DNA from: Bacteroidota bacterium
GTDB lineage: Bacteria; Bacteroidota; Bacteroidia; Palsa-965
Direction: 5' to 3'
NCBI GenBank assembly: GCA_020402865.1
Contig: JADBYT010000024.1
Coordinates: 71,949 to 135,948, forward strand
DNA length: 64,000 nt
This document shows, one piece after another, positions 9,759 to 49,294 of the stretch. Both the position numbers and the translations under genes were made by a program. The first letter of the stretch is position 1; each line of letters begins with the position of its first letter. The notes below the pieces were generated by a model, which was given only the letters and a program-made list of their open reading frames with translations, was not told the DNA's origin and did not search any database.

Positions 9759-10244
9759 TTACTTGTACTGGAGATTGTTTACCGATTCCTCAAATTCATT
9801 TTCAATAAAATCCCTCTGTGGATAATCGTCCCGGTAAATAAACCCGACATAACAATTTTCTTCATCAAGATCCAACTGTTTGATTAAGTGGTTGTAACAA
9901 AACTGCTCCGGTGGATGCTGCTCACAATATTTAAACCAGCGGCAGAATAATCTGAAGCGGTTTTCTGCCCGCCCGTCGGCATTGCTGCATATGTAGTAAA
10001 GTATTTTGTTGTTTTGACTAAACCAGTTCCTGATAATGTACGATATGGTGGAATAAACTTTCGCATCATGTGCGGGAAGCTCGGTACGGGAAATTTCAGC
10101 AAATGAAATAGTATATAAATCATTGCTGTTTGAAATTTCATTTATCAGATAATCGGATGTATGAGTAATAGATACTTTATAATATAATGATTGAGATGTG
10201 GCGAAATAATACGAATCCCCGTCGCGGATATAATCGTAATGCAT
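9759..10244 (-). CDS. Hypothetical protein (Tyr/Cys-rich, no recognised family) in a low-GC insert
   Basis: 161-aa ORF with clean ATG. Markedly AT-richer than flanking genes: sampled 60-nt windows run about 25-43% GC versus about 58% in the adjacent ABC gene. Possible Cys/His cluster 'FCRWFKYCEQHPPEQFCYNH'. Confidence 0.5.
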   Translation of the reverse strand: MHYDYIRDGDSYYFATSQSLYYKVSITHTSDYLINEISNSNDLYTISFAEISRTELPAHDAKVYSTISYIIRNWFSQNNKILYYICSNADGRAENRFRLFCRWFKYCEQHPPEQFCYNHLIKQLDLDEENCYVGFIYRDDYPQRDFIENEFEESVNNLQYK

Positions 10245-10532: not shown

Positions 10533-11303
10533 TTACTGCAAGTTTTGCGGCTGTTGCGGCATTCCAGTTCCCCATTGCCCGTATCCGCTGCGGTTTACGC
10601 GTTCGGCCAGCTCGTCTTCAAACGTCACCATTTTTTTGAGTACCGTGCTCAGCACGGCGAGCGCAGCAAGATAAAATACAGCCGCTATTCCGTTAATAAT
10701 CAATGATGTTTGCATGGATTCCTGCATCATTTGCTGCGTATCGAAGGTTTGAAAACGACGGATTTGCCCCATTTGGTCAAAAGTGCGGTTCATCGCAATA
10801 ACGGCGCCCACTATAGCCACAGCCACGCCGCCCATCCATATACCCCACCAGAGATTTACCGGTTTTTGCGGTTCGTGGGCATACTGCTCACCGTCGGCAC
10901 GCATGGCACGCTGGGTTTTGTTCCAGATTTCGGCAATCATCTGAAACGGGCGTACGAAGTTGAGAAACGGAACAAACCAGCCGCCAATGGTCCAGCCCAG
11001 CGCATAATCGGGCAGGGCAGGGTTTATGCGTTGCAGGTTTTCATAGGCCCGGTACATCCAGATCAGAAACAGAATGGGAAACACCAGTCCGGCCAGCCCG
11101 GTAACAAGACTGATGATTCCAGAGGTTAGAACCATGCCCAGATTATCGCGCACCGACATGGGGTCGGTAGCGATGCGGCTCATTGTGGAAGTCATGATCC
11201 ATTGCAGGGGCAGATTGATGATGTAGGCGGCAAACAACATCCAGAGTGTAATGCGCAGGTAGCGGTGCAGTTTCTGGTTTGGGTGAAGTTTGATGTAGTA
11301 CAT
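10533..11303 (-). CDS. DUF4328-like integral membrane protein
   Basis: Multiple TM helices. Motif 'GGWFVPFLNFVRPFQMIAEIWN' is typical of the Bacteroidetes DUF4328 family. Confidence 0.6.
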   Translation of the reverse strand: MYYIKLHPNQKLHRYLRITLWMLFAAYIINLPLQWIMTSTMSRIATDPMSVRDNLGMVLTSGIISLVTGLAGLVFPILFLIWMYRAYENLQRINPALPDYALGWTIGGWFVPFLNFVRPFQMIAEIWNKTQRAMRADGEQYAHEPQKPVNLWWGIWMGGVAVAIVGAVIAMNRTFDQMGQIRRFQTFDTQQMMQESMQTSLIINGIAAVFYLAALAVLSTVLKKMVTFEDELAERVNRSGYGQWGTGMPQQPQNLQ

Positions 11304-11305
11304 GG

Positions 11306-11968
11306 CTATGCGGGTGTTTCTGTTTTGGGAGTGGATGTGAGGTGTGGATATACCAATTTTTCAAGCCTAAAATATTGAAATAGGGTGATAATGCCTCCTG
11401 TAAAGCCCAAAATGGCTGCAAGCACCTGTGTCATGTAAACAATTACACTCATCTCCACGCGATAATTTTCGTAAACCCGGATCATGATAAAGCCAAACAA
11501 CTGAAGGGTTACAAAAAATGAAAAGCCAATTTGCCAGAGCATAATCGGATATGCTCTGGCGTTGTAATTCATACCGTATGGGAGTTTGGAAATGAGCAAC
11601 TGACGGCAGATTCTAAATTGCCGGAACGGGAAAAATAAGTTGAACAGCGGTATATACCAGCTTGCCGCAGCCAGTGAGGGGTTTATCCGCCTCTCGTCTT
11701 TAAAAGCGGTGGTTACATTCTTTGTGATGCGGAACATCCAGATGCCCACAAAAATGGCCGAAAGAAGCACCGAAAAAAACAAAAAAGCCACTACTGATGC
11801 TGTGATAGTCCGAAGAAAATTGGGGAGCTGCTGTTCGCTTTCCTGCACATATTGGCCAATAAAGTAACTGGATACAGCGATGAAAAGGGAGAAAAATAAA
11901 CCCGCGCCCAGACACAGCATTAATGCAACAGTAATTGCTTTAGCCGGAGAAACAGGCTTTTTCTGCAT
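11306..11968 (-). CDS. DUF4328-like integral membrane protein (tandem paralog)
   Basis: Same architecture and motif 'SWYIPLFNLFFPFRQFRICRQL'. Separated by 2 nt from the downstream paralog. Confidence 0.6.
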   Translation of the reverse strand: MQKKPVSPAKAITVALMLCLGAGLFFSLFIAVSSYFIGQYVQESEQQLPNFLRTITASVVAFLFFSVLLSAIFVGIWMFRITKNVTTAFKDERRINPSLAAASWYIPLFNLFFPFRQFRICRQLLISKLPYGMNYNARAYPIMLWQIGFSFFVTLQLFGFIMIRVYENYRVEMSVIVYMTQVLAAILGFTGGIITLFQYFRLEKLVYPHLTSTPKTETPA

Positions 11969-19431: not shown

Positions 19432-20976
19432 ATGTCCAACACACTAACCGATCAGCTTTTTGCACTTATTCAGTCGATGACCAAGTCGGAGAAGCGGCAT
19501 TTTAAGTTGTTTGTACAACGTTCGGGAAGCCGGACTGATCTGTTATTTGTGAAGGTGTTTGATGCACTTGAGCAACAAAAGACATACGATGAAGAACGCC
19601 TGCTCAAAAAGGTCAGAGGATTACGCAGGGCGCAACTATCCAACGTAAAAAAGCATCTGTATAACCAGCTTTTATCCAGTTTGCGCTTGCTAGCACAGGA
19701 TGATGCGGAGATGAAAATACGTGCCCAGCTTGATTATGCGCGGATATTATACCACAAAGGCCTGTTTTTGCAAAGCCTTCGCATGCTTGAAAAAAGCCGC
19801 GAAGAAGCAGAGAAAATGAATCAGCCCATGCTGTTGGCGCAAATACTTGAAGCTGAAAAGAATATTGAGTTGCGGCATATTACACGAAGTCCTTCAGGCA
19901 GAGCCATGCAGCTTTCGCTGAAAGGGGCTGAACTCCGGCAGCATATTGCCCGCGCAGCAGCCCTCTCTGAGCTGGCGTTGAGCATTTATAATTTTTTCAT
20001 CATTAACGGTCCGGCTAAAGATGCAGAGGATTACGAGGAGGTAACACGTTTGTTTCATACAGGAATGCCTTCGCTTCCTTTTGGCAGTCTCACCTTCAAC
20101 GAACGTGTTTCATACTGTCAGGCCTGTGTGTGGTACAATCTGGTGATACAGAATTTTGTGCAGTGCTACCGTTATGCACATAGCTGGGTTATGTTGTTTG
20201 ATGTGTATCCTGAACAACGACAGCTCGATGCAGCTCTTTACCTCAAAGGACTTCACAACGAACTCACGGCATTATTTTATTGTGGCGATGTGGTTCGGTT
20301 CTCGGCATCACTTTCGCTGCTTGAAAAATTTATTGAAACTGAATCATCACGTTTCAGTTTAAATACACAGTTAACGGCATTTGTGTATCACCATACCAAT
20401 AAGCTCAACCTCTTTTTTATGGAAGGGCGTTTTACAGATGGTGTGGATTATGTGCCGCACTTACTTAAACAGATCAGACATTTCGGCGATCGGATTGATC
20501 AGCACCGGCTTATGATTTTCTGGTACAAGATTGCCTGTATCTATTTTGGTCATGGTGATCATCACTCCTGCATGCGTTATTTACAGAAAATTATCAATTA
20601 TCCTACTCCTCAGTTGCGTGAAGATGTGCAGGTGTTTTCCCGTTTGCTTTATCTGGTAGCCTGTTTTGAATCGGGTGATGATGACTTGCTTGAATATCAG
20701 ATTCGCTCCACTTATCGTTTCCTTTTGAAAATGCGCGATCTGGGTGAGTTACATAAAGAGGTGCTTCGCTTTCTCAGACAATCGGGTAATTTAAACCGCA
20801 GCGAAACACTACAGGCTTTCCGCGATTTGAAACAACGGCTTGAACACGCTGCTGAAGCACCTTTTCAACGACGCATGGCCATGTATCTCGATGTAATTTC
20901 GTGGCTGGAAAGTAAAATTGAACAGGTACCTGTTCAGGAAATTATTCGCAGAAAGGCATTGAAAAAGATCAGTTGA
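19432..20976 (+). CDS. Hypothetical all-helical protein (TPR-like), conserved-looking; function unknown
   Basis: 514-aa ORF with clean ATG and no TM segments. Helical repeat character. N-terminus 'MSNTLTDQLFALIQSMTKSEKRHFKLF'. Confidence 0.55.
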   Translation: MSNTLTDQLFALIQSMTKSEKRHFKLFVQRSGSRTDLLFVKVFDALEQQKTYDEERLLKKVRGLRRAQLSNVKKHLYNQLLSSLRLLAQDDAEMKIRAQLDYARILYHKGLFLQSLRMLEKSREEAEKMNQPMLLAQILEAEKNIELRHITRSPSGRAMQLSLKGAELRQHIARAAALSELALSIYNFFIINGPAKDAEDYEEVTRLFHTGMPSLPFGSLTFNERVSYCQACVWYNLVIQNFVQCYRYAHSWVMLFDVYPEQRQLDAALYLKGLHNELTALFYCGDVVRFSASLSLLEKFIETESSRFSLNTQLTAFVYHHTNKLNLFFMEGRFTDGVDYVPHLLKQIRHFGDRIDQHRLMIFWYKIACIYFGHGDHHSCMRYLQKIINYPTPQLREDVQVFSRLLYLVACFESGDDDLLEYQIRSTYRFLLKMRDLGELHKEVLRFLRQSGNLNRSETLQAFRDLKQRLEHAAEAPFQRRMAMYLDVISWLESKIEQVPVQEIIRRKALKKIS

Positions 20977-20988
20977 ACCTTTTCGTAA

Positions 20989-22296
20989 CTATTTTTTGAA
21001 CTGAAGAAATACGTCCCAGTATTTCTCTTTATTCATTTCCGACCAGTGAATGATTTCGTAACGATACTGTAACGTTTGAAGCTGGCATAAAACAACAATG
21101 AGTATCGTAATTGCAGTAACTGTAATGCGCTGCAGTTTATTTTTGAGCGCATTGAAAAGGGTAAACAAAAGCAAGGCAAATACCGGAAGGTATTCAATCA
21201 TTACACGCGGACCGAAACTGCCTCCGTAGTACCACATCCACCAGCTTGATAACAGATAGACTGTAAGCACCAGAAACAAAGCAGCAACTACTGCACGGAT
21301 TTTATGCTGGCGGAATAATGGAATAAACCCGGTCAGCGCAAGCAGTGTAAGCGGGATATATACAAATAATCCTTTTCTGTAACTGAACAAAAAATCGAAA
21401 AAGTGAAACGTGTTAAACCGGAATTCTTCACCGCCATAGGCATCTATAAAAAAACGGCCTGTTTGTACTTTCCATATAGCCATTTGGATGAAAAGAATGC
21501 CTGCAAAAAGTATCGCGGAAATCACTGGAAAAACAGGTTTGCTGAACAGTTCACGAATGCGGTTGATTAATATTTTAATACTTCCTGCTTCAGCAAAAAG
21601 CCAGAGTACAATCAGGCCGTTAACCGGGCGGACGAGAATAATTAACCCAAGTAAACCGGCTAAATACACAAATTGAAGAGGTTTTCCTTCATTGATCCAT
21701 TTATTACCCTGTAAGAGAAAACAGCTGATTAGTGCAAATGAATACACGTGAGACATTAACGGTTCAGCTACTGCATAATAAAATAAATTGGTGCCGAAGA
21801 GAATGATAAGACAAACTAATGTGGCCGTTAACGGAGCTGTATGATGTTTGAGCAAATAGTTTCGTAAACAAAATAGTCCGAATCCAAGCCAGCAAAGTGC
21901 GCCAATATGCATAAATAGCACATAGGTTTTCGAATAGCCGCTGAAATCGTTAGAAAACGAGCCATAAAGTTTTGCGGTCAGAAAAAAAGGCGTTTGCAGC
22001 AAAGCGGTGCCGCAGAAATACTTATTTACGATGCGTCCGTTTACGGTTACGCGGTAATCGGCGCGGTTGTTTGTATCGGTATATTCTTTATCAATCTTAT
22101 CGTAAAAGCCAAAATTAAGATCGTGGTAAAGGAAAGTAGCCGGCAGGTAGGCGTAGTATCCGCGGCCATCGGATATGATACTGTATTTCCAGAAATGTTT
22201 GTTTAGGCGGATGTTTGAAACCACAGCGAGGCAAATCAACAGGCCAAGAAGAATGCCTGTGCGATTGAGTATTCTTGCCGGGAGATTAATTTTCAT
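20989..22296 (-). CDS. Polytopic membrane protein, putative GT-C-fold glycosyl/mannosyltransferase-like
   Basis: About 11 predicted TM helices. First extracytoplasmic loop carries 'SDGRGYYAYLPATFLYHDLNF'. AT-richer than neighbouring genes. Confidence 0.4.
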   Translation of the reverse strand: MKINLPARILNRTGILLGLLICLAVVSNIRLNKHFWKYSIISDGRGYYAYLPATFLYHDLNFGFYDKIDKEYTDTNNRADYRVTVNGRIVNKYFCGTALLQTPFFLTAKLYGSFSNDFSGYSKTYVLFMHIGALCWLGFGLFCLRNYLLKHHTAPLTATLVCLIILFGTNLFYYAVAEPLMSHVYSFALISCFLLQGNKWINEGKPLQFVYLAGLLGLIILVRPVNGLIVLWLFAEAGSIKILINRIRELFSKPVFPVISAILFAGILFIQMAIWKVQTGRFFIDAYGGEEFRFNTFHFFDFLFSYRKGLFVYIPLTLLALTGFIPLFRQHKIRAVVAALFLVLTVYLLSSWWMWYYGGSFGPRVMIEYLPVFALLLFTLFNALKNKLQRITVTAITILIVVLCQLQTLQYRYEIIHWSEMNKEKYWDVFLQFKK

Positions 22297-24613: not shown

Positions 24614-24681
24614 ACATTATCCTAAACAACAAGGCCGCATACTTTGACAGATGCGGCCTTGATGTGTTTTAACCAGAACAA

Positions 24682-25620
24682 TTACCAGGTTGATCCGCCA
24701 TGTCCGCGCTGACCAGTAGCAAATACACGCGAAATATTGAAACCAAAACGAATACCGCCATCAAACGGATTGGCGCGGGTGTAGGGTACAAACTGGGCTT
24801 CATTTACACCATATGCATTTGTGAAGTGAAGCTGAAACACGTGGCCGCCTGTTTCAAGATCAATGCCAATGCCCATCGGATCGTAGAAGCTGTCGAAATT
24901 GTCGGTGTATTTGTTGAGGCGGCGGGCATACTCAAACGTAAGTGCCAGACGCTTGGTGAGTTTGTAACGACCCGAAATACCTGCAGCAAACATGTCGTTT
25001 TTGTCGGATGCCCGTTCTACCAGATTGTAGTGCACATGAAATGCATTGATCTGGATGGAAAAATTTTCGCTGAACTTGCGTGAAATGGTAAGCGAATTGG
25101 AATACGACATGCGTGAAGTCGCATACTGGTATTTATTAACACCTGTGGCAATTCGGTTCGGATCCTCCTGAACTGTGTAATTCATTGTGCCCTGATACGT
25201 CAGCGATATGGGCATTTTGCCATCCACAGTCTGACGGAGCACACGCACTTTCACAGCCCCGTCAATCAGCTTCTCAAACGAACTGCGGCCAATGCCTACG
25301 GTCATCCAGTCGGTTACACCGTAGTCAAGTCCAAGACGAATACCGGCCGGGCCGTCGAGCCCGAATGCATTTTTCACGCCGGTGTTGAGTTCGCCGAAGC
25401 GGTGATTAATGCGAAAGTCGAGCATTTTTTTGCCGATGGTTTCGCAGGAAGGGAAGTTGATTACACGTGTGGTTTTGAAAGTAGCGCGCACATAGTCTGG
25501 TTCAGCGGCTTTGGCTTCTTCAGCAGCCATCTGGTCCATCATGAGCTGCATTGAATCAACCTGTGCCATTGCGGCAAGGGAAAACAGTAAAGCGAGTGTG
25601 GTAGATAAAAATCGTTTCAT
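24682..25620 (-). CDS. Outer-membrane beta-barrel protein (hypothetical; DUF5777-like)
   Basis: Signal peptide 'MKRFLSTTLALLFSLAAMAQ'. Alternating amphipathic beta-strands. Aromatic C-terminus '...GGSTW'. Last gene of a 4-gene minus-strand operon. Confidence 0.55.
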   Translation of the reverse strand: MKRFLSTTLALLFSLAAMAQVDSMQLMMDQMAAEEAKAAEPDYVRATFKTTRVINFPSCETIGKKMLDFRINHRFGELNTGVKNAFGLDGPAGIRLGLDYGVTDWMTVGIGRSSFEKLIDGAVKVRVLRQTVDGKMPISLTYQGTMNYTVQEDPNRIATGVNKYQYATSRMSYSNSLTISRKFSENFSIQINAFHVHYNLVERASDKNDMFAAGISGRYKLTKRLALTFEYARRLNKYTDNFDSFYDPMGIGIDLETGGHVFQLHFTNAYGVNEAQFVPYTRANPFDGGIRFGFNISRVFATGQRGHGGSTW

Positions 25621-25644
25621 CAGGATACTATCAGTGGTATATAA

Positions 25645-26016
25645 TTACTGGGGACAACCGGCCTGCACCCATTTACGGATGAGTGTTTTCTGACATTCGT
25701 CGAGCGGCGGTCCGGAGGGAGGCATAGCCTGAAAGCCCGCTTGCTGATACACGGCGCCTACAAGTTGCCCCGATAACCCGACAGTCCGTACGCCCTGATA
25801 ATTATCAAGTACATACGGATTTCCGGAACCCGGATTATGACAGGAGATACAACTGTTCGTCATAATCTCACTTATTTTACCACTGTAAGTAGGTGCAATT
25901 GTGGTATCACAATTGTTATTGAGAATAAGCGCCGGATACATTTCCTCCATGTTGTCATAATAGCAACCTGAAAAGGTGGCTGTAATGGCAAAGGCTGCAA
26001 TCAGAATTTTTTTCAT
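25645..26016 (-). CDS. Small lipoprotein with a class-I c-type cytochrome-like / PSCyt1-like domain (CxxCH)
   Basis: Lipobox 'ATFSGC'. Heme motif 'CISCH', then 'AMPP' (candidate Met ligand) and 'LIRKWVQAG'. 123 aa. Confidence 0.55.
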   Translation of the reverse strand: MKKILIAAFAITATFSGCYYDNMEEMYPALILNNNCDTTIAPTYSGKISEIMTNSCISCHNPGSGNPYVLDNYQGVRTVGLSGQLVGAVYQQAGFQAMPPSGPPLDECQKTLIRKWVQAGCPQ

Positions 26017-26022
26017 AGCAGT

Positions 26023-26388
26023 TTAGTTATTTTTTGCACCCTGCTCAATCCAGACAAGAAGCAGTGTGGTTTGACGTTTAGAGAGAGCCGGGTAGGGGGG
26101 GAGCGGCATAAACTCATTATCCCGGCCGGTAACTACTTTGTAAATGTCACTGTCTGCGGCATTGCCCGGTTTTACGTCGCCGTTCTCAATTACATCATTG
26201 TAATCAAGAAGAGTGAACTCAGACGTGTTGGTGGTGCCGTGACAGCCATTATGCTGACAAGAAGCTTGAATGATGGGAAGAATTTCGTTGGCGAAACTTA
26301 CTTCCCTGTCTGGTAATACAGGCTCGTGTTTGCAGCCTGTTGCCAGTGCAATTCCTGACAAGATAATTACGGCGAGAATTGTTTTCAT
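26023..26388 (-). CDS. Small lipoprotein, paralog of 25645..26016, with variant CX4CH cytochrome-like motif
   Basis: Lipobox 'ALATGC' from ATG 26388. 'ILPIIQASCQHNGCHG' aligns with the paralog's 'IMTNSCISCHNPG'. Shared 'L(L/D)DYN', 'MP(L)PP' and 'L...WI.QG' blocks. Confidence 0.5.
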   Translation of the reverse strand: MKTILAVIILSGIALATGCKHEPVLPDREVSFANEILPIIQASCQHNGCHGTTNTSEFTLLDYNDVIENGDVKPGNAADSDIYKVVTGRDNEFMPLPPYPALSKRQTTLLLVWIEQGAKNN

Positions 26389-26605
26389 GTTGCTACGGTT
26401 ATTTACAAATATAAGTTTTTTGGCACAGGATGCCTGAAGTTTGATGCCGGTTTTCTTGTGTTTTCCCGGGAAAGGGGAAGTGCTGCCGGAGTTTCGCTCC
26501 AACAGCACTTCCAAAAACATGCAGAGGCTGTGTAAAATTTATCTTTTGATATTTCCTAACCATTCCTAAAACAGCCTCTAAACGTCTGCTTACCGCCCGT
26601 GTGAA

Positions 26606-27307
26606 TTATTTTTTCGTTTTTTCGAGTCTGTAAAGCTCGGGTAAATTAATACGAATGGTGAATGAGCTTGTCCAAAGCCACATGTTTAAATATTCGTTTT
26701 TTATTACCGGTTGCTGGTCGATATGTGCCGAAAATTCAAAATCAGCCACATTATTTATTGAGATACCCGCACACGCCACAAACTTTGCGGTAAACGGGTT
26801 GTAGCCTTCGGCCGGAATAATTGTTTGCACCGGGAGGTAAATGGGATCTTCTACCTGGATATTATTTCCCACACCGTTTTTTCTTTTCAGCACATAGTTG
26901 AAACCGCCGCCCACGCCTGCAAAAGGATTAATGCGAGGCCGGTTCATTTTTACCCGAAGCTGTATATCGCCATCGAGGCATTGAAAGCGTTCATCAATAT
27001 CGATCAGTACGAGCTGATTGTTTGGAACAGGAACATATATTATACTCCCGCTTCCGCGTTTACGATAACCTGCATTGGCTATAAACTCTATCCATTGCCC
27101 CGAATAGGGTTTGATGAATAAACCAAATCCCGGCGAAAGAAACGACGAAGTCTGAAACCTCGGATCGCGCCGGTCGGCTGACTGGGTAAATACGGTTGAA
27201 TTGGCATTTACCTGAAAATTAAGCCCCCAGTTGTGCAGCGGCGAGTTTTCAGATTGCGCATGAAGAAAATTTGCAAGGAACAGTCCGGCAACAAGAAAAC
27301 GATTCAT
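26606..27307 (-). CDS. Outer-membrane beta-barrel protein, porin/OmpW-like family (hypothetical)
   Basis: Signal peptide 'MNRFLVAGLFLANFLHAQ' (ATG about 27305-27307; the track ORF extends to 27349 via GTG). Beta-strand periodicity. C-terminal 'SSFTIRINL'. Confidence 0.55.
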   Translation of the reverse strand: MNRFLVAGLFLANFLHAQSENSPLHNWGLNFQVNANSTVFTQSADRRDPRFQTSSFLSPGFGLFIKPYSGQWIEFIANAGYRKRGSGSIIYVPVPNNQLVLIDIDERFQCLDGDIQLRVKMNRPRINPFAGVGGGFNYVLKRKNGVGNNIQVEDPIYLPVQTIIPAEGYNPFTAKFVACAGISINNVADFEFSAHIDQQPVIKNEYLNMWLWTSSFTIRINLPELYRLEKTKK

Positions 27308-27454
27308 AGCGTTTGTGATAGATGAAGGGTAAAAAAATCCGGGCCGCACTTACGCAGCAGGAAGATGAATTAATCAGAAGCAGAGTAAATACTGCTGTTC
27401 AAAAGAAGCAGCCGGGAGAATAAAAGCTAGATGAAAACGGCGGGTGAAAGCGTA

Positions 27455-33001: not shown

Positions 33002-33203
33002 ATCAATTTGAAATAGATATTCCTATTAAAGAAGTAGGTAAATATAAATTATTAAACACCGTAGAATAGTCTGATTGAATTTTTCATTTTACCAATGATT
33101 ACAAGTGGCTCAGCGAATAATAACATAAATACTTCAATTTGCTCACCGAAGAATAATCTTATCCTGTATTGATTCAATGATTATTTTGGGAATACATTTA
33201 CGT

Positions 33204-34997
33204 ATGTACCCCTTTAAACATCAGTCCTCAAAATTTATTGCCGCATTGCTTGGTAGCTTGTGCTGTCTTGCTTTGCAGGCGCAGGTAAGCTTGTATTCGT
33301 TTTCCGAAACAGCCGCCACTTATACTGCTGTTTCGGGAACAGTAATACACGCTGCCGGGTGGAATGATCCTGCGCCGGTGAGTGTGCCTATACCATTTAC
33401 ATTTACGTTTAACAGTGTGGGTTATACTTCGTGCAGTGTAAACGGAAACGGGTATATCACTTTTGGAGCTACTGTTTCTGCGGCAGCGGGAACAACGCCT
33501 GTTTCTGTCGCAACGGGATACAATGGTGCCGTTTCTGCGATGGGGATTGATCTCATCAGCAACAGTTCTGTTATCGAATATGCCACCACCGGCATTGCTC
33601 CCAACCGTGTTTTTGTGGTTCAGTGGAGTAATTGCAGGAGGGTGGCCGATAACAATGCCGGTGCCGACTGGAATTTTCAGATCCGGCTGCTGGAAACCAG
33701 CAATGTAATTCAGGTGCGCTATGGCACATGCGGGGCAACCAATGCCACCAATACCATTGTTTCCCAAATTGGTTTGCGCGGTGCCACAAATGCCGACTTC
33801 AACAACCGCCGCAAAACCACAGCTTCCTCCTGGGCACTCACCACCACTGCCGGCACACTGAATACACATACCGTACTAAGTCGCAGCACGGCTCTGCCGC
33901 CTTCGGGGCGTACTTTCATCTGGACACCCTCGTTAATTACCAATTCCTGCGACCCGAACGGGAATGTGATTATTTATTCAAACTACGATGGCGGCATACT
34001 CAACATCAATGTCGATCAGAATATTCCCAATCTGAAAATAGGCGTGTGTACGTATGAAGGTGTAACGATAAACATTTCCGGCACATTTGCAGCAAATGTA
34101 ACCGAGGTGCGCTACGTGGGCTTCAACGGCGCCAATGCACATTGCAGCGGTGTAATCAATACCAGTATAAATGGGGCACCGGCAGCTGTTACTTCTGTAA
34201 GTTTTTATCCTTCAGCCACCATGACCGATCCAAATGGCAGCAGTAATATGGTTTGTGGTTACAGCTGCAGCACCGGCAATCAGGGCGGATGTAATACCGC
34301 CGGGCAAATTGCACACTATTTCCTTACGCAGTTTGGCGGTACATTGCGTTATCATTTTACCCAATACGGTTGCTGGGCCAGTTCCTATCTGGTAAGCAGT
34401 GGCGGCAATTGTTGCTTTGTCAATCAGGTATTGCCCGTTGAACTTAACTATTTCACTGCTGTATGCGATGTAAACGGCAATGCACAACTCGTATGGGAAA
34501 CCGCTACCGAAACCAACAATCATTATTTTACCCTTGAACGTTCCGACGATGGCAGCCGGTTTTATACGCTTGCCACATTAAACGGAGCCGGCAACAGTTC
34601 GTCGCCCAGCCACTATTCATTTACTGATCAAAGCGAACATCCGGCAGTGGTTTACTATCGCTTACGCCAGACCGATTATAACGGAGCTTCAGCACTTTTT
34701 CCGGTGCGTGTATTTAATCGTGAATCGTGTATGGATCAGGCCAATGAAGTGAGTGTATTTCCGAATCCGGCTTTACACAGGCTGGTACTTCAATGGAACA
34801 ATGAAGAAGAATCACCATACACAATTGAAGTGCGTGATCTTCTGGGAAGGGTAATGCTTACTCAGTATTTCACTCCTCAAACGGTATCGGCTTTAGTTGT
34901 GCTGCAAATTGATGATCTTCCGCAGGGCACATACATTGTTTCTCTTTACGATGAGGAATTCGGAAAGCACCGGCATGTGCATTTCGTGAAGCAGTAG
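33204..34997 (+). CDS. Secreted protein with T9SS C-terminal sorting domain (cargo of the type IX secretion system), function unknown
   Basis: Signal peptide 'MYPFKHQSSKFIAALLGSLCCLALQAQ'. C-terminal roughly 80 aa '...VSVFPNPALHRLVLQW...GTYIVSLYDEEFGKHRHVHFVKQ' matches a T9SS type A CTD. Confidence 0.7.
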   Translation: MYPFKHQSSKFIAALLGSLCCLALQAQVSLYSFSETAATYTAVSGTVIHAAGWNDPAPVSVPIPFTFTFNSVGYTSCSVNGNGYITFGATVSAAAGTTPVSVATGYNGAVSAMGIDLISNSSVIEYATTGIAPNRVFVVQWSNCRRVADNNAGADWNFQIRLLETSNVIQVRYGTCGATNATNTIVSQIGLRGATNADFNNRRKTTASSWALTTTAGTLNTHTVLSRSTALPPSGRTFIWTPSLITNSCDPNGNVIIYSNYDGGILNINVDQNIPNLKIGVCTYEGVTINISGTFAANVTEVRYVGFNGANAHCSGVINTSINGAPAAVTSVSFYPSATMTDPNGSSNMVCGYSCSTGNQGGCNTAGQIAHYFLTQFGGTLRYHFTQYGCWASSYLVSSGGNCCFVNQVLPVELNYFTAVCDVNGNAQLVWETATETNNHYFTLERSDDGSRFYTLATLNGAGNSSSPSHYSFTDQSEHPAVVYYRLRQTDYNGASALFPVRVFNRESCMDQANEVSVFPNPALHRLVLQWNNEEESPYTIEVRDLLGRVMLTQYFTPQTVSALVVLQIDDLPQGTYIVSLYDEEFGKHRHVHFVKQ

Positions 34998-35874: not shown

Positions 35875-36825
35875 TTACGTTCTTAATCCCAAAGCCTTGA
35901 GCACGTTTCGGCCTTCATCGTGTATTTCCCATGCCAGTATGGCGCGATCGTCGCCTGTGGAAATGAGCAGATCGTGATAGTTGCTCCACAACAGGCGGTT
36001 TACCGAATTGTGGTGGCCGTTAAAACGTTCGCGGTTAAGACGTACAATAATATTACGCGTAGCGGGATCCCAGATTTTAACTGTTTTATCGCGGCTGCCG
36101 GTGGCAAAGTAATTTCCCTCGGGCGACCATACAATGCTGTAAATGGCGTAGTTGTGGGCCGGAATGGATTCGATGCGGTTGTAATTTTCATCCCACACAT
36201 TCAGGTGTGCATCTTTTCCGCCCGAAAGCAGGAAACTTCCGTCGGGCGACCAGCTCACACAATTTGCCGACTGGGCATGCGCTTCGAAGCAGGCAATTTC
36301 GGTTACTGCAGGCAGCTCGAAAATGCGCACGTTACCATCGCCCGAAGCCACCGCCAGCAAATTGCCGTTTGGATGCAGCGCAAGGCCGCGTACTTTGCCG
36401 GTGCAGAGTTTGCGGATTTTCAGCAACTCAAGTGTATCAGTATCGCCCACGGCCAGCTGCCCGTCGGCACCGGCCGAAAAAAACAGGCCATGAGCAGGCG
36501 CCACCAGCAGGTCGAACACGGCGGCCGCATGCAGTTGCAAAATTTTAATCTCGCTTCGCTTTATCGTATCAATAAAATGTATGCTGCCTGCACCTGTTCC
36601 GGCCAGCAGCACGTTTTGCGGCTGAAGATGCAGCAAACTGTACACCGGCGCAGGCAGCTGGGCCGTAAATCCGCCCTGGTGCCCGGTTTCAAGATCCCAG
36701 GAAGCGATAAATCTGTCGCTGCTTCCGCTAAGGATCTGATTGTGTGTAAACCCTTGAGCCAGTGCATATACTGCGCCACTATGGCCGGTAAGGGCATGCC
36801 GTTTGCGAATCACCGGTTCACTCAT
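35875..36825 (-). CDS. WD40-repeat beta-propeller protein
   Basis: Repeated WD units: 'SGSSDRFIASWDLETG', 'GGKDAHLNVWDEN', 'TGSRDKTVKIWDP', 'TGDDRAILAWE'. Start ATG 36825 ('MSEPVIRKRHALTGHSGAVYAL'); the track ORF extends to 36873. Confidence 0.75.
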   Translation of the reverse strand: MSEPVIRKRHALTGHSGAVYALAQGFTHNQILSGSSDRFIASWDLETGHQGGFTAQLPAPVYSLLHLQPQNVLLAGTGAGSIHFIDTIKRSEIKILQLHAAAVFDLLVAPAHGLFFSAGADGQLAVGDTDTLELLKIRKLCTGKVRGLALHPNGNLLAVASGDGNVRIFELPAVTEIACFEAHAQSANCVSWSPDGSFLLSGGKDAHLNVWDENYNRIESIPAHNYAIYSIVWSPEGNYFATGSRDKTVKIWDPATRNIIVRLNRERFNGHHNSVNRLLWSNYHDLLISTGDDRAILAWEIHDEGRNVLKALGLRT

Positions 36826-36899
36826 ACTGCAAAGATGGAGGGTTTTGCGTAAATTCGCGGAAGAGATTTTCATTCATTCACATTAAACTGCGCATTAGT

Positions 36900-41982: not shown

Positions 41983-43542
41983 ATGAAATGTTTATCCCTT
42001 TTTTTTATTCTGTTGATTGTTTCATTTTCAGCCTTTTCACAAAACTGGGCCCCCTTAACAATTAATGATACATTTCATTATCGACTAGACGGGGAGCAGG
42101 TAATTTCTGTTACTTTTTTTGTTCAGAATTATTCTACTAATAATGGCGATACCACATTTACATTTAATCAGATCGGGCAGGATAGCGGTATTTATCGCCC
42201 TGTTGGGCCGATTAACTGTCAAACCTGTTACGGGCTGCTCAATCAGCCGCAGGCAATTTGTGGTTACAGTATGCTCAAATCAACAGCCGGAATCTGTCAA
42301 ATAAATACAGGCACCAGCGTAAATGAAATTCATACACTTGGCAGTACTGGAAACTCATGGATGTTTAATGCCAGTTCAAATACTGCCGCACAAATTATTG
42401 CCGAATATACCGGAACGGTGCTCGGTCAGCCTGATTCACTTAAATTTGCGCTGTTGAGTACAGGCGATTCGCTGATCTGGTCCAAGCACCACGGTATTGT
42501 ACAATGGCCCACCGGCAACGGAATTTATTACCGAATAGCCGGTATTCAAAACCGGAATACCGGTGATAAACCACCGGGTGTAAAAGATTTTTTTGATTTT
42601 CAGCCCGGTGATATGTTTGAGTATGTTTCCGAGCATCACGAAACGTTTCAGAAGTACGACTATCACCGCACTAAAATTACAATCAATTCGAGAACAGATA
42701 GTGGAAGCAGCATTACTTATACTTATTCAGGTGCACACACGGCCATGAATTATGATTATCTGAATAATCCTCCCGGAAATGCTACAAGTTATTTATTCAC
42801 TCCTGTTAGCGGGTCATTCACGATTACCGATTCAGCAAATCATGCAGCCAATGGTTATCATCATCAAATGGTGAGTTTAAATGCCGCATTTATGAACACT
42901 GTTCACATGCTCGATGGCAATTCAGTTTTATTTACAAATGAAGTCTGGTATGAAACCCGCCACTTTATTGATTCGTTGGGGAACTATGGTGTCGTAATTG
43001 GCGGGAATGATCCGGTTGACAGCTCCACATATACATTTTGGGGAACAATGGGGGCAAAAAATCTCTCCAGTGGATCGGATACCACATATATGGTTTATGA
43101 CGGAATTAATATGTACCCTTCGTTCACGCATACAGGAAGTGCCTATGTAGCAGGTTTAGGTATGGTACGTGCTTCATTCCGCACAGTGGGCTATCCTGAC
43201 GGGTTTATATATAGCGAAAAACTAGTGGCTTACCGTAAGGGAAATGATACGGTAGGCGTATTTACGCCCGATGCAATACTGTTAGGGCTTTCAACAGATG
43301 AAGTTTTACCCGGGCTTGTGATTTATCCGAATCCGGCTTCTGATTATCTTCATATCGAAACTAAAGGAGCTTTTGTAAATTTGGTTTGTGTTTATGATGC
43401 AACAGGCCGGCTAGTTCTTCGTCATGCAAATGATGGTTTACAATGCGTGGTAAATGCACAGACGCTTAATGAAGGGATTTATTATGTGGAAGTATTTACT
43501 GAAAAAGGAAAGATTCGGGAAAAGCTGTTCGTTCACAGATAA
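41983..43542 (+). CDS. Secreted protein with T9SS C-terminal sorting domain, function unknown
   Basis: Signal peptide 'MKCLSLFFILLIVSFSAFSQ'. C-terminus '...PGLVIYPNPASDYLHIET...GIYYVEVFTEKGKIREKLFVHR' matches a T9SS CTD. Lower GC than flanking genes. Confidence 0.7.
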   Translation: MKCLSLFFILLIVSFSAFSQNWAPLTINDTFHYRLDGEQVISVTFFVQNYSTNNGDTTFTFNQIGQDSGIYRPVGPINCQTCYGLLNQPQAICGYSMLKSTAGICQINTGTSVNEIHTLGSTGNSWMFNASSNTAAQIIAEYTGTVLGQPDSLKFALLSTGDSLIWSKHHGIVQWPTGNGIYYRIAGIQNRNTGDKPPGVKDFFDFQPGDMFEYVSEHHETFQKYDYHRTKITINSRTDSGSSITYTYSGAHTAMNYDYLNNPPGNATSYLFTPVSGSFTITDSANHAANGYHHQMVSLNAAFMNTVHMLDGNSVLFTNEVWYETRHFIDSLGNYGVVIGGNDPVDSSTYTFWGTMGAKNLSSGSDTTYMVYDGINMYPSFTHTGSAYVAGLGMVRASFRTVGYPDGFIYSEKLVAYRKGNDTVGVFTPDAILLGLSTDEVLPGLVIYPNPASDYLHIETKGAFVNLVCVYDATGRLVLRHANDGLQCVVNAQTLNEGIYYVEVFTEKGKIREKLFVHR

Positions 43543-44668
43543 TAGTGAAACAAGTTGTTATGTCAGGTTATTAGTCTGTTCAAAAAAAGCTGGGTTTGCG
43601 AACTGTCTGCTTTGTATTATTTCCTTATTGTTTTCAGTAATACTACACGCACAAAATCCTAATCTCATTCCCAATCCCGGTTTTGAAGATTACTTAGGTT
43701 TCCCTGATAAAAAAAATCCTGCGAAATACTGTATCTCACAATGGTCGGTGCCTTATCAGGCCGGTGCTGGTGATTATTACCACACGAAGGCAAATCCCGG
43801 TCAGCGTCCGGAAGACAATAAATACGGTTCACAAAAACCGTTTGACGGTGAGGCTATGACGGCCATCTGTAATTATCCCGGTTTCCGCGAGTTTCTGCAA
43901 ACAAAACTTACACGAACGTTATCGCGCGACAGTGTGTATCAGTTTACCGTTCGTATCAGTTGTGCGGATGGAATGAAACCGGGAGATGTGCTTACTGATT
44001 TTGGCGTTGTTTTTTTGCCGGCTGAAGTGGATGAATTTGACGGCGAACCCTTGCTCAGGGAACCGCCGGCCATGTATTGGCGCAATGAAAACGGATTTGC
44101 AGACAAAGAAAACTGGATTGAATTAAAACAAACCTATAAGGCAAAAGGGAATGAACGTGTTTTGTTATTTGGTTCGTTTCACTGGAAAGATTCGCTTAGC
44201 GGAAAAGTATATGGAAACGTGAATTATAAGCGTTATACACATTATTACATTGACGGATTTGAACTCCGAAAAATTACACAGGTGAAAGCGCAAACAAAAG
44301 ATGATGAAAAATTGTTTGTGAATACTGATTTGCTTGTGCTCCGTAATTTGCTTTTTGCCACCGCCAGCGACAGACTTGACACAAACTCAACTGCCGAACT
44401 GGATGTGCTTGCCACCTATTTGCTCCGCCATCCGGAGAAAAAAATACGCATCACCGGTCATACCGACAGTGAAGGTGATTCGACGGCAAACATGTGGCTG
44501 AGTTTAGCACGTGCAGCAAGCGTGAAACATTATTTAGTACAAAAAGGGATTTCTGCTGTACGCCTGCAAACTGCGGGCAAAGGAGAAAATGAACCGTTAA
44601 TACAAAACACCACGCCCGAAGGACGGCAGCAAAACCGCCGTGTGGAAATACGACTATTGAAAGACTGA
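43454..44668 (+). CDS. OmpA-family protein (novel roughly 290-aa N-terminal domain plus C-terminal OmpA peptidoglycan-binding domain)
   Basis: C-terminal 'ITGHTDSEGDSTANMWLSLARAASVKHYLVQKGI...QNRRVEI' (OmpA_C). Hydrophobic signal-like 'FANCLLCIISLLFSVILHAQ'. True start unclear: the ORF overlaps the upstream gene by up to 89 nt, and no in-frame ATG/GTG/TTG lies between the upstream stop and the signal peptide. Confidence 0.6.
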   Translation: MHRRLMKGFIMWKYLLKKERFGKSCSFTDNSETSCYVRLLVCSKKAGFANCLLCIISLLFSVILHAQNPNLIPNPGFEDYLGFPDKKNPAKYCISQWSVPYQAGAGDYYHTKANPGQRPEDNKYGSQKPFDGEAMTAICNYPGFREFLQTKLTRTLSRDSVYQFTVRISCADGMKPGDVLTDFGVVFLPAEVDEFDGEPLLREPPAMYWRNENGFADKENWIELKQTYKAKGNERVLLFGSFHWKDSLSGKVYGNVNYKRYTHYYIDGFELRKITQVKAQTKDDEKLFVNTDLLVLRNLLFATASDRLDTNSTAELDVLATYLLRHPEKKIRITGHTDSEGDSTANMWLSLARAASVKHYLVQKGISAVRLQTAGKGENEPLIQNTTPEGRQQNRRVEIRLLKD

Positions 44669-47755: not shown

Positions 47756-49294
47756 TTACTGTGCACATTTAATCAGCCTGCCTGTGTATATACGTCCGTT
47801 CTGGTTAAGCTGCCAGAAATACATCCCTGCTGGCAATTCACGAACTGAGAATTCCGAATTATTCTGAACGGTTTCACTCATCACCGTTTTACCCGAAATA
47901 GCATACATCGTGAATATACTTCCCGGAAATACTGGTTTGCTGAAAGAAATGACCTCAACAGCCGGATTTGGAAAAACACTTATCCGTTCTTCAATTTCCG
48001 TTTCATTCAATCCAATTATGAGGCAGTTACTGGTGATATTCAGATTTAGTGGTGTGGATACAAATGACACGGCAGCCTGATTAAAATTGCATGGAATAAA
48101 CATTTCGATGACCGCTGAATCAATTAAGTTAGCCGATTGAAAGGAGAGTGAAACAGGATTTATCGCACACCCGGAGATCGGAAGTGCTGAGCTGGCCGGA
48201 AGTGTTTTTATTAATCGCTGTGCGAAATTATTTCCTGACGGTGTTTTACCATAGCAGGTAAAACTTCCGTCGGCATTGCGGTAAAAATCTTTAGGTTCAA
48301 ATCCTGTACCACTAGCTATTTCTATAGCATTGGTTGAATTAGCTGACCAGTCTGTAATTACCGTTTTATCTGCGGCAGAATTGTAGGTAAGTGAAATCAA
48401 CTGTCCGTTTTCATTTATAAGTTTTACAGACATCAGCGAGTCTATGCGATTTCCACTTTGAAACGTACCCGCACTGTCGTAAACATATAATGTTGTTTTA
48501 TTTCCGGTTTCATTCATAAGCAGTGCATTCACTGATCCGTTAGTATGAAATACAAAGTCTGTAAATGAACTTGCTGTGTTGGTGCGATAGAACGTTGAAT
48601 GAAGTACATTCCCGGATGTGTCTGTGACTACAACTTTTGCCCCCATTTGGGTACTTGAATAGTTGCCCAGCGCTAATTTATTGTTTGAAAGTAGCTGCAT
48701 TTTTTCAAGCACATAGCCGGTTTCGGTCGATTCTTTAGCCCATACAGGCATTCCCGAAGGATTAAGTTTAAGCAAGAGATTACTTTTGGACGGATTTCCC
48801 TGCGGAGTAGTCTGACGCTCATAACCGAGATAAAAATAACCGGCAGAATCTTCAATAATTGTCTTGCAATAAAATCGAAGTCCGTCAACATATAGTTTTT
48901 CCTGCCATAAGATAGTCCCCGCACTGTCAAGTCTGATAATTACAGTACCCTCATTGTTTACAGTATTTTGTTGTTGATTACGGTAAAAACCGGCGATACA
49001 AAATCCGGCATCGTTTGTTTCTATCATTGCATCCGGACTTACCCGGAATAATGCGGTGTTCTGAATTACACGCGCCCAGATTATATTTCCCGAAATATCC
49101 GTGCGTGTTAAATAAAAATAGTTGACCCCTACACTTATTGTACTCAGCGTAACATAATCGCCGTTCATACACTTTGTTTGTAGTAGTGCATGAGAAGTAG
49201 TCGGAGCTGTATAAGAATAATCAAAAGACACAACCTGTGCTCTTGTATGCAGGTAAAACGACACGAAAGAAAAAAGTAGTATAAATTTTTTCAT
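47756..49294 (-). CDS. Secreted protein with T9SS C-terminal sorting domain, function unknown
   Basis: Signal peptide 'MKKFILLFSFVSFYLHTRAQ' (ATG 49294). C-terminus '...ISVFPNPAVEVISFS...GMYFWQLNQNGRIYTGRLIKCAQ' matches a T9SS CTD. AT-rich. Confidence 0.7.
   Translation of the reverse strand: MKKFILLFSFVSFYLHTRAQVVSFDYSYTAPTTSHALLQTKCMNGDYVTLSTISVGVNYFYLTRTDISGNIIWARVIQNTALFRVSPDAMIETNDAGFCIAGFYRNQQQNTVNNEGTVIIRLDSAGTILWQEKLYVDGLRFYCKTIIEDSAGYFYLGYERQTTPQGNPSKSNLLLKLNPSGMPVWAKESTETGYVLEKMQLLSNNKLALGNYSSTQMGAKVVVTDTSGNVLHSTFYRTNTASSFTDFVFHTNGSVNALLMNETGNKTTLYVYDSAGTFQSGNRIDSLMSVKLINENGQLISLTYNSAADKTVITDWSANSTNAIEIASGTGFEPKDFYRNADGSFTCYGKTPSGNNFAQRLIKTLPASSALPISGCAINPVSLSFQSANLIDSAVIEMFIPCNFNQAAVSFVSTPLNLNITSNCLIIGLNETEIEERISVFPNPAVEVISFSKPVFPGSIFTMYAISGKTVMSETVQNNSEFSVRELPAGMYFWQLNQNGRIYTGRLIKCAQ

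Follow-up and report, generated by a model that had tools for sequence, protein, structure and literature searches.

A conserved Bacteroidota gene trio for two cytochrome c-like lipoproteins and a DUF5777 barrel, a probable electron-transfer module of the outer membrane

The window, a 64-kb stretch of Bacteroidota DNA analysed as a whole, carries a conserved unit of three genes that encode lipoprotein B, lipoprotein A and an outer-membrane beta-barrel of the DUF5777 family (positions 26388 down to 24682, minus strand). Our preferred reading, to which we give a probability of about 60%, is that this trio is an outer-membrane-linked haem electron-transfer module operating on a small or lipophilic redox molecule. 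Judged from sequence comparisons, the trio appears to be a reduced copy of a module present across the Bacteroidota, which usually also includes genes for a YceI-like lipocalin and an OB-fold protein anchored in the membrane, often along with a two-component regulator.

Layout and limits of the gene unit

Table 1. Positions of genes, motifs and candidate signals in the window
Feature	Position	Strand	Details
Orphan ORF, signal peptide, putative barrel	26606..27307	(-)	233 aa
TATATTTG, candidate promoter box matching TAnnTTTG	26406..26413	(-)	read from sequence
Lipoprotein B	26023..26388	(-)	121 aa from ATG at 26388
B, CQHNGCH (CX4CH)	26239..26259	(-)	residues 44-50
B, predicted distal Met-Pro (in FMPLPP)	26104..26109	(-)	Met94-Pro95
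Lipoprotein A	25645..26016	(-)	123 aa
A, CISCH	25837..25851	(-)	residues 56-60
A, Met-Pro (in AMPP)	25720..25725	(-)	Met98-Pro99
DUF5777 outer-membrane beta-barrel, signal peptide	24682..25620	(-)	312 aa
Terminator-like hairpin, AAGGCCGCAU...AUGCGGCCUU then GUUGUUU	24624..24660	(-)	RNA fold

All four minus-strand ORFs named in the original prediction are present at the coordinates it gave, and reading of the sequence reproduced its gaps of 6 nt between B and A and 24 nt between A and the barrel gene. The hairpin located between the DUF5777 stop codon and a convergent NUDIX gene has a folding energy of -29.9 kcal/mol (z -5.6), equalled by none of 200 shuffled sequences, and marks the 3' end of the B-A-DUF5777 unit. 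At the opposite end, TATATTTG lies 18 nt upstream of the start codon of B, within the 217 nt that separate B from the preceding ORF, and both the box and its A-rich flank are conserved in the relative L001. The -7 promoter consensus of Bacteroidota is TAnnTTTG, and the box is a possible, weak candidate, at the level of consensus evidence, for a dedicated promoter of the three genes. Matches from a sigma-70 promoter scan were set aside because this consensus is unsuitable for Bacteroidota and the matches were inside genes.

The ORF upstream of B had been labelled an OmpW/porin-like barrel and counted as the first gene of a four-gene operon. Searches of its product did not bear out the label: no match was found in Pfam or NCBIfam at E-values up to 1 or among PDB profiles at E-values up to 10, and hhalign revealed no relation to DUF5777. 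The model in which this ORF supplies a second outer-membrane barrel acting together with the cytochromes draws on its adjacency and shared strand, its signal peptide, a beta-like alternation of hydrophobicity (detected by a crude amphipathicity scan that cannot decide the fold) and its retention in the closest relatives. However, homologs were found only in these near-identical, fully syntenic relatives (L001-L005), and the ORF is absent from L007-L087, including all 80 distant loci; in L007, with a B ortholog at 46% identity, a GT2 gene directly precedes B. The gap with the promoter-like box and the lack of a matching family or solved structure also argue against a joint operon, which we consider very improbable. 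Since the ORF is 217 nt away from B and missing at distant loci, the four-gene operon is reduced to a three-gene core. The proposed sandwiching of the lipoproteins between two barrels is an accident of lineage, the upstream ORF being a putative barrel outside the conserved unit.

Two cytochrome c-like lipoproteins

From their sequences, A and B look like paralogous lipid-anchored monohaem c-type cytochromes with His/Met ligation, belonging to the PSCyt1/FoxE branch of class I. Both carry lipoprotein-type signals, with the lipobox cysteine at position 18 in A (...FSGC) and 19 in B (...ATGC). The motifs reported earlier, CISCH and AMPP in A and CQHNGCH in B, are all present (Table 1) and conserved far beyond chance. 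In 69 A-type sequences, the C and CH of the motif are invariant, and an extra Cys36/Cys108 pair, predicted to form a disulfide, is nearly so. The B motif is not the canonical CXXCH; its CX4CH occupies the same alignment columns as the CXXCH of A and is kept in six of six B orthologs, and across 13 orthologs C, CH and MP are invariant.

The lipoproteins were originally described as clear paralogs. This is true at the profile level (B-type versus A-type in hhalign, 99.8%, E = 1.9e-29), whereas plain BLASTP, in which only 26 residues aligned (E = 5e-4), is insufficient alone and was replaced by the profile-profile comparison. The A-type profile aligned over the full length with cytochrome c6 (3dr0, E = 4e-5), bringing both CxxCH and the axial Met-Pro into alignment, and also matched many other class-I cytochromes. 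The B-type profile matched FoxE (E = 2.5e-7) and the CAMCH segment of the hydrazine synthase alpha subunit (5c2v_A, residues 640-667, E = 1e-3). B is homologous to a solved haem c protein and similar to it in fold; among solved structures, FoxE and PccH stand nearest to the B-type domain by sequence profile as well as by fold. With the joint A+B profile, 18,617 representative proteins were retrieved; canonical planctomycete PSCyt1-PSCyt2-PSD1 proteins received high scores (P0230, P0144, P0234). No match of A to PSCyt1 (PF07635) was found in Pfam, and B scored 13.2 bits (E = 0.15), below the gathering threshold of 22 bits; all Pfam and NCBIfam matches of the two proteins were below curated cut-offs. 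The AF2 model of B was of moderate confidence (pLDDT 69), lowest around the motif, and Foldseek found nothing significant for it. The strict conservation of both Cys, the His and the Met agrees with the original description of cytochrome c-like lipoproteins with a PSCyt1-like layout, and the profile searches led to the opposite of a non-haem family without conserved Cys and His, the result that had been named as contrary to that description.

The spacing CX4CH, thought to be a rare variant of the attachment motif, turned out to be usual in this family. Among 158 domains encoded next to DUF5777, it was the commonest form (77, versus 68 with CXXCH) and the majority state of the B-type (55 of 61). 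All 158 domains contained C…CH, with His directly after the second Cys, and a downstream Met-Pro; the Cys spacing ranged from 2 to 9, and CX4CH and CXXCH replaced each other between domains 50-63% identical. Of 445 domains in the top representatives, 444 kept C…CH and 431 of these also had Met-Pro. In 149 top representatives and in the 80 loci, CX4CH accounted for 39-49% of the domains inspected. System II (CcsBA) is the presumed machinery for cytochrome maturation in Bacteroidota. Cys spacings of 4 to 9 residues make unusual haem lyase substrates, a point against the electron-transfer reading.

The drift of the Cys spacing from 2 to 9 could alternatively mean that the domains have a cytochrome c-derived fold that lost its haem, the Cys pair, His and Met forming a metal site (e.g., for Cu or Zn) or a redox-active disulfide, in which case they would act as a metal chaperone or thiol-redox partner of the barrel. 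The scores below threshold with every curated cytochrome model and the low AF2 confidence around the motif are consistent with this, but every element of the haem c ligand set (Cys, Cys-His, Met-Pro) is invariant and the cytochrome c6 alignment spans both the motif and the axial Met. Moreover, a metal site of fixed geometry would not tolerate the spacing changes between such similar domains, and CX3CH and CX4CH haem sites are known in other cytochromes from the literature. We therefore regard the loss of haem as improbable.

The DUF5777 barrel and its conserved neighbours

The product of the third gene matched DUF5777 (PF19089) over profile positions 1-247 of 247, with 303 bits against a cut-off of 23.1 (E = 1.7e-90), and the larger beta-barrel of the original prediction is thus a solid member of this family. 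Its modelled fold is that of an outer-membrane beta-barrel with 12 strands, of the small-channel type. In the AF2 model (pLDDT 86.7), the barrel comes after two helices, that of the signal peptide (residues 2-19) and an N-terminal one (residues 23-38); its predicted lumen-facing positions are polar and highly conserved. The nearest structures were small channels, namely FapF, the KdgM/NanC porins and the COG4313 channel, as well as LpxR. His73, His197 and His260 are invariant, their placement following from strand parity only. No papers on DUF5777/PF19089 were found in the searchable literature.

DUF5777 loci, at least 598 in number, occur in hundreds of species-level Bacteroidota genomes, and synteny was analysed in a sample of 80 species-level loci around this gene. 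One to three cytochrome-like domains were encoded immediately upstream of DUF5777 and on the same strand in 68 of the 80. Since these syntenic loci come from different species, a chance adjacency of the three genes was rejected; the proposed tie of the lipoproteins to an outer-membrane barrel was supported. A YceI-like lipocalin gene was present in 66 loci, an OB-fold protein gene in 45 and a two-component system in 28, while 56 loci contained both YceI and cytochrome genes. Ten more had YceI and DUF5777 and lacked a cytochrome gene; hence the barrel can evidently work without cytochromes. A T9SS-secreted protein with CxxCH was encoded in six DUF5777 loci, with a weak, sub-threshold match to Reeler (E = 0.016).

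The HMM scan revealed no YceI-like ORF in the 64-kb window, an OB-fold partner was likewise missing there, and no two-component system adjoins the trio. Nor did the Pfam survey reveal cytochrome-maturation genes (CcsBA/ResBC or Ccm) or other redox genes in the window, so that the local context is uninformative on function. Taken alone, the window copy is an ordinary, reduced family member. No paper describing the module was found in the searchable literature, and in line with the original statement that the genes are not assigned to a known pathway, no published pathway was found to cover the trio.

Possible function and comparison with known systems

Transfer of electrons within the cell envelope is the probable role of the module. 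The analysis established the order of the genes, their homologies, the conserved haem ligands, the shared synteny and the fold of the barrel. At the outer membrane, the two cytochromes would act as a short relay, giving electrons to or taking them from a redox molecule, small or lipophilic, that would be admitted or held by the DUF5777 barrel, and YceI, where present, could help the exchange between the relay and its substrate. YceI-like lipocalins have a polyisoprenoid- and quinone-binding fold. Covalent haem, the membrane side faced by the lipoproteins, the contacts between the proteins and the nature of the substrate are what we infer. The most likely version, put forward tentatively and by analogy, is that the relay re-reduces a lipocalin-bound isoprenoid quinone or quenches lipid radicals, and would thereby protect the outer membrane as BcnA(YceI)-LcoA does in proteobacteria; YceI proteins associated with cytochromes have been reported before (PMC9113575, PMC8981238).

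A FoxE-like oxidation of an imported reductant, e.g., Fe(II), ranks next. A soluble reductant, which may be Fe(II), Mn(II) or a phenolic or humic compound in reduced form, would enter the periplasm through the DUF5777 channel and be oxidised there by B and A, its electrons going on to the respiratory chain; alternatively, the reaction could serve plain detoxification. The two solved proteins nearest to the B-type domain are FoxE, a putative Fe(II) oxidase of a photoferrotroph, and PccH, a cytochrome that in Geobacter is connected with the uptake of electrons. The haems of FoxE have His/Met ligation as well, and a disulfide stabilises the protein, comparable to the A-type Cys36/Cys108 pair; the barrel resembles small solute channels. 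We consider this reading unlikely, if still deserving attention. The exported lipoproteins could also donate electrons at the cell surface, feeding extracellular oxidative enzymes or substrates as do Cbp2D and Cbp2E of Cellvibrio. The latter combine a YceI-like domain with c-type cytochrome domains. The T9SS-secreted CxxCH protein with its weak Reeler match would fit such a role, but no signal for export to the surface is evident, no LPMO or polysaccharide-utilisation genes were found in the 64-kb window and no electron route across a 12-stranded barrel is apparent, which makes surface donation slightly less probable even than the loss of haem. A true porin-cytochrome wire is unlikely because a barrel of 12 strands is too narrow to house a cytochrome.

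It is possible, although we would not expect it, that the electron-transfer module belongs to an undescribed, phylum-wide and regulated redox system of the outer membrane composed of lipoprotein cytochromes with a flexible CXnCH motif (n = 2-9), YceI as a quinone or lipid carrier, the OB-fold protein and DUF5777. If so, it would deliver reducing power to or from the outer membrane or the cell exterior, for antioxidant protection of outer-membrane lipids or the oxidation of external reductants, and the System II haem lyase of Bacteroidota would routinely load non-canonical CX4CH and longer motifs. Electron supply or removal at the Gram-negative outer membrane is known for only a few specialised metal-respiring systems. 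The module links YceI lipocalins, which are poorly understood, to c-type cytochromes in a second phylum and gives DUF5777 a testable functional context. Should haem indeed be bound by the lipoproteins, CX4CH would be no curiosity but an everyday attachment site in a large family, and this would directly raise the question of which substrates System II maturation accepts.

Among known systems, BcnA-LcoA resembles the module in the genetic link between a lipocalin of the YceI family and a cytochrome. In the published model of that system, the cytochrome re-reduces the lipocalin-bound quinone that quenches lipid peroxyl radicals in the envelope (PMC9113575). LcoA is an inner-membrane b-type cytochrome (b561), in contrast to the c-type lipoproteins and outer-membrane barrel described here, and the Pfam survey detected no cytochrome b561 in the window. 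FoxE of Rhodobacter ferrooxidans SW2 (PDB 5MAB) is soluble, carries two haems at canonical CXXCH motifs with cross-domain Met ligation and is encoded with FoxY (PQQ) and FoxZ, whereas B is a single-domain lipoprotein with CX4CH, encoded together with the DUF5777 barrel and about 20% identical to FoxE. Of the foxEYZ partners, the Pfam survey showed the window to encode neither a PQQ protein nor a DMT-type transporter (FoxZ is an inner-membrane transporter of the DMT fold).

PSCyt1 (PF07635, 'Planctomycete cytochrome C') shares the layout of helix, motif and Met-Pro with A and B. It occurs in large multidomain planctomycete and verrucomicrobial proteins, P0230, P0144 and P0234 having CXXCH, while the Bacteroidota branch consists of small lipoproteins or arrays of 2-8 domains in which CX4CH is common. 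Among the class-I cytochromes c (c6, c552, c5, CcoP domains), the likeness is to c6, to which the A-type aligns in full; A differs in its lipid anchor, in the N-terminal extension with the Cys36/Cys108 pair and in belonging to an outer-membrane gene module.

Haem sites with CX3CH, CX4CH and CX15CH have precedents in other cytochromes, cytochrome c3 being one for CX4CH. Its motif in Desulfovibrio, CGTAGCH, and the consensus of the present family, C-A-x-S-G-C-H, have in common the two-residue-longer spacing and a Gly before the second Cys. Since a 35-residue B-type consensus peptide, searched for this likeness, had no match in PDB, the resemblance rests on the motif itself and on weak profile matches of the B-type to cytochrome c3 that cover the CX4CH segment. 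The haems of cytochrome c3 are bis-His in a different fold, while the A/B family is class-I-like with a Met ligand, and cytochrome c3 is matured by System I (Ccm), the host phylum using System II. The relationship, if any, is convergent. CX4CH haems are documented in the literature for tetrahaem cytochrome c3 and other multihaem proteins.

As for the barrel, FapF, KdgM/NanC, COG4313 (Phenol_MetA_deg-like) and LpxR also have 12 strands, with 15% or lower identity to DUF5777, which differs in its own invariant motifs, LDFRIxHRFG and ETGGHVFQ, and in gene context. The arrangement of c-type cytochromes encoded beside an outer-membrane barrel is shared with MtrCAB, PioAB, Pcc and Cyc2. In those systems, barrels of 16-26 strands enclose or are fused to a mostly multihaem cytochrome. 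With its 12-stranded barrel and separate monohaem lipoproteins, the trio therefore stands outside the porin-cytochrome conduit class.

Conserved three-gene core of the locus

All four minus-strand ORFs of the original prediction are present at exactly the positions claimed (table below), and the core gaps in the sequence are those claimed, 6 nt between lipoproteins B and A and 24 nt between A and the barrel. The motifs claimed for A and B were likewise found, and B additionally has FMPLPP. IM638_15590 and IM638_15595 are exact protein matches for the locus.

Genes of the core locus and other genes of interest in the window
Feature	Position	Strand	Length	Characteristics
Upstream ORF	26606-27307	-	233 aa	
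Lipoprotein B	26023-26388	-	121 aa	lipobox ATGC; CQHNGCH, residues 44-50; FMPLPP
Lipoprotein A	25645-26016	-	123 aa	lipobox FSGC; CISCH, residues 56-60; AMPP
DUF5777 barrel	24682-25620	-	312 aa	full-length PF19089 match
DUF6169 gene	9759-10244			near the DUF4328 pair
DUF4328 paralogs	10533-11303, 11306-11968	-		tandem
WD40 protein	35875-36873	-	332 aa	bacterial; almost entirely WD40 repeats (E 1e-46)
Por_Secre_tail proteins	33177-34997, 41983-43542, 47756-49366			T9SS C-terminal sorting domain; no other recognised domains
OmpA-family gene	43454-44668			after the Por_Secre_tail gene 41983-43542
Signalling protein	50133-55397	+	1,754 aa	Reg_prop/Y_Y_Y propellers, several PAS, C-terminal SpoIIE (PP2C) phosphatase
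ORF	5031-6665	+	544 aa	no significant Pfam match
ORF	19432-20976	+	514 aa	no significant Pfam match
ORF	20989-22296	-	435 aa	no significant Pfam match; looks like a polytopic membrane protein

The upstream ORF had been labelled an OmpW/porin-like barrel, but it matched no family in Pfam or NCBIfam, gave no PDB profile match and showed no relation to DUF5777 in hhalign. An HMM search of related loci in other genomes (L001-L087) found its homologues in L001-L005 alone, where the entire neighbourhood of the window is shared, and none in L007-L087. A GT2 gene lies directly before B in L007, where the B orthologue is 46% identical. Since the upstream ORF is restricted to close relatives and has no family match, the conserved core consists of three genes, B-A-DUF5777. 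The proposed four-gene operon is thereby reduced to this core; the upstream ORF is separated from B by a 217-nt spacer. The spacer contains TATATTTG, kept in L001, which matches the Bacteroidota -7 box consensus and is a weak candidate for a promoter element. At its 3' boundary the core is followed by a strong predicted hairpin (24631-24660; -29.9 kcal/mol, z -5.6) with a U-rich tail.

Housekeeping genes (GT2, RecQ, NUDIX, M14 peptidase, carB, leucine biosynthesis) flank the trio, and a Pfam survey of the 64-kb window revealed no further cytochrome, cytochrome-maturation or other redox genes. The 435-aa ORF is kept beside the locus in L001 and L004. The large signalling protein is of a sensor type common to DUF5777-linked kinases in other loci, but is encoded 25 kb from the trio.

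The gene described earlier as a second beta-barrel encodes a member of DUF5777 (E 1.7e-90), a family with at least 7,994 matches. In a confident AlphaFold model from a 72-sequence alignment (pLDDT 86.7), the signal-peptide helix is followed by one N-terminal helix spanning residues 23-38 and by 12 beta-strands, consistent with a weak Pfam match to Phenol_MetA_deg. Invariant charged and polar residues, including D68, K124, R218, K220, E230, E256, Q263 and N295, have lumen-facing strand parity. A wire of the Mtr or Cyc2 type is unlikely, since the predicted 12-stranded barrel is unable to enclose a cytochrome.

Cytochrome-like lipoproteins and their variable putative haem motif

Curated Pfam and NCBIfam models matched the lipoproteins below threshold: A scored 19.6 bits against Cytochrome_CBB3 and B 13.2 bits against PSCyt1, and both matched LIC11213_lipo weakly. 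A joint A+B profile matched 18,617 proteins at E <= 1e-3 among 1.84 billion representative proteins, many with two to eight tandem domains. The matches include the textbook planctomycete PSCyt1-PSCyt2-PSD1 proteins P0230, P0144 and P0234, which by homology places A and B in the PSCyt1 superfamily and bears out the earlier PSCyt1-like guess.

The two lipoproteins had been called clear paralogs. BLASTP aligned only their C-terminal 26 residues, but alignments built separately from 55 B-type and 69 A-type domains (the classes named after B and A) matched each other in hhalign with 99.8% probability (E 1.9e-29, 123 columns), and the CX4CH of B fell in the alignment columns occupied by the CXXCH of A. 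This profile-profile match identifies them as real paralogs. Among PDB sequences, the A-type profile retrieved cytochrome c6 (E 4e-5), with CxxCH and the axial Met-Pro in register, and dozens of other class-I cytochromes, while the B-type profile retrieved FoxE (E 2.5e-7) and, at E 1e-3, residues 640-667 of 5c2v_A, a CAMCH segment of the hydrazine synthase alpha subunit; both profiles support the cytochrome c assignment. The AF2 model of B, of moderate confidence (pLDDT 69), has a signal-peptide helix followed by the four-helix layout of class-I cytochromes. In A-type domains two further cysteines (C36 and C108 of A) are almost always kept and probably form a disulfide comparable to the one that holds the C-terminus of FoxE.

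The close orthologues, a handful for each lipoprotein, always keep the motif, C[ILV]SCH in A and CQH[NDS]GCH in B. Cys…Cys-His and a downstream Met-Pro were retained in all 158 domains adjoining DUF5777, with the spacings CX2 (68), CX4 (77), CX3 (5), CX5 (4), CX6 (2), CX8 (1) and CX9 (1). CX4CH occurred in 55 of 61 B-type domains (consensus C-[AT]-x-S-G-C-H); among A-type domains CXXCH predominated (64), but 22 had CX4CH. The 149 top representative proteins contained 445 domains: 261 with CX2, 174 with CX4, nine with other spacings and one truncated fragment lacking the motif region; Met-Pro was found in 431 of the 444 motif-bearing domains. Spacing differed even between domains 50-63% identical (e.g., CSGCH and CTQSGCH), and for 28 of the 158 the nearest neighbour had a different spacing. 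These sequence comparisons indicate that the spacing is evolutionarily labile and that CX4CH, previously regarded as a rare variant, is a normal, interchangeable state in A/B-like domains.

Very long spacings occur at L010:4549-4953, L026:4073-4456, L015:1058-1450 and L072:2715-3338, with the motifs CGTTGGAASGCH (CX9), CSSGSISCH and CGINDNTCH (CX6) and CTNPGEGLNCH (CX8); if haem-binding, these would be unusual attachment sites. Many predicted lipoproteins among representatives P0134-P0282 string together three to eight A/B-type domains (e.g., P0146, 749 aa; P0135, 602 aa), typically one or two B-type (CX4CH) among several A-type (CXXCH); a tail resembling a T9SS sorting domain closes some of them. 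Such arrays would be lipid-anchored multihaem chains of monohaem class-I modules.

Genomic context of DUF5777 in other genomes

A DUF5777 alignment scan of one genome per GTDB species yielded at least 598 confirmed loci, of which 80 were taken with 5-kb flanks; their ORFs were searched with HMMs, clustered and labelled from Pfam. One to three A/B-like domains were encoded directly upstream of DUF5777 on the same strand in 68 loci (61 of the 69 with at least 3 kb of upstream sequence), a co-occurrence seen across Bacteroidota. Cultured carriers of the module include Adhaeribacter terreus CGMCC 1.6961 (L086), Taibaiella koreensis THG-DT86 (L029) and Pinibacter aurantiacus MAH-26 (L077). A YceI-like protein (PF04264) was adjacent in 66 loci, a membrane-anchored tRNA_anti-like OB-fold protein (PF12869) was nearby in 45, and a two-component system, either Reg_prop/Y_Y_Y-His_kinase with LytTR or HisKA with an OmpR-type regulator, in 28. 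Cytochrome-like and YceI genes occurred together in 56 loci, YceI alone in 10, and cytochrome-like genes alone, as in the window, in 12. With Cys spacings in parentheses, one typical order is [kinase-regulator] [OB] c(4,2) c(2 or 4) [OB] YceI DUF5777, and another is c(4) c(x) DUF5777 YceI. An HMM scan found no YceI-like or OB-fold gene in the window, and no two-component system adjoins the trio; the window copy is a reduced, unremarkable member.

Some loci (L013, L035, L062, L066, L078, L082 and L085), including those of cultured Flammeovirga strains, have a YceI-DUF5777 pair and no cytochrome-like gene within 5 kb; barrel plus lipocalin may represent the more basic arrangement. In six of the 80 loci (e.g., L075:3519-4361) a T9SS-secreted protein of ~280 aa with an N-terminal CTSCH, which matches Reeler only weakly and below threshold (E 0.016), is encoded in or beside the module; it may be an additional redox component at the cell surface.

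Possible function and relation to known systems

The three-gene unit, the homology to haem c proteins with the full ligand set and the gene linkage were observed directly, and we infer haem binding from them; our main reading, with a probability of about 0.6, is a module that transfers electrons through haem at the outer membrane. Each lipoprotein would carry a single haem ligated by His and Met, and the two, tethered at the outer membrane, would form a short relay; its redox partner would be a small or lipophilic molecule that DUF5777 handles, together with YceI where that is present. Within this reading, a quinone or lipid radical as the partner is the leading, though tentative, proposal.

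The invariant Met and the His directly after the second Cys fit a haem c site in which the loop joining the two thioether cysteines varies in length. The haem motif of cytochrome c3 is CGTAGCH. The haem reading is weakest in that Cys spacings of four to nine residues may not suit the System II haem lyase of Bacteroidota; Wolinella has an extra CcsA/CcsB paralogue for CX15CH. CX4CH haems exist in other proteins, according to the literature. A non-haem metal or thiol role for the A/B-like domains is unlikely; the strictly kept His and Met fit a fixed-geometry metal site poorly. FoxE, matched by the B-type profile, carries two haems and is the putative Fe(II) oxidase of Rhodobacter ferrooxidans; a similar oxidation of an imported reductant is possible, if doubtful. 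That the module delivers electrons to the cell surface or beyond is unlikely.

The individual components are already catalogued: Pfam lists DUF5777, and YceI and the folds of PSCyt1 and class-I cytochromes are known as well. In the literature searched, no paper mentions DUF5777 or PF19089, and neither the module as a system nor the prevalence of CX4CH within it is described, in agreement with the original view that it belongs to no known pathway. It is a widespread module that has yet to be explained and can be tested directly, and every functional statement made here derives from homology and synteny. We place it among systems in which c-type cytochromes are coupled with a YceI lipocalin and a protein of the outer membrane. 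Lipid peroxyl radicals in the envelope are countered by BcnA (YceI) together with LcoA, a cytochrome b561, and the proposed mechanism is re-reduction of a lipocalin-bound quinone (PMC9113575). In Cellvibrio, Cbp2D has both c-type cytochrome domains, which can reduce LPMOs, and a YceI-like domain that binds ubiquinone (PMC8981238). In both systems a YceI domain is linked to a cytochrome, as YceI-like genes are to cytochrome-like ones in most DUF5777 loci.
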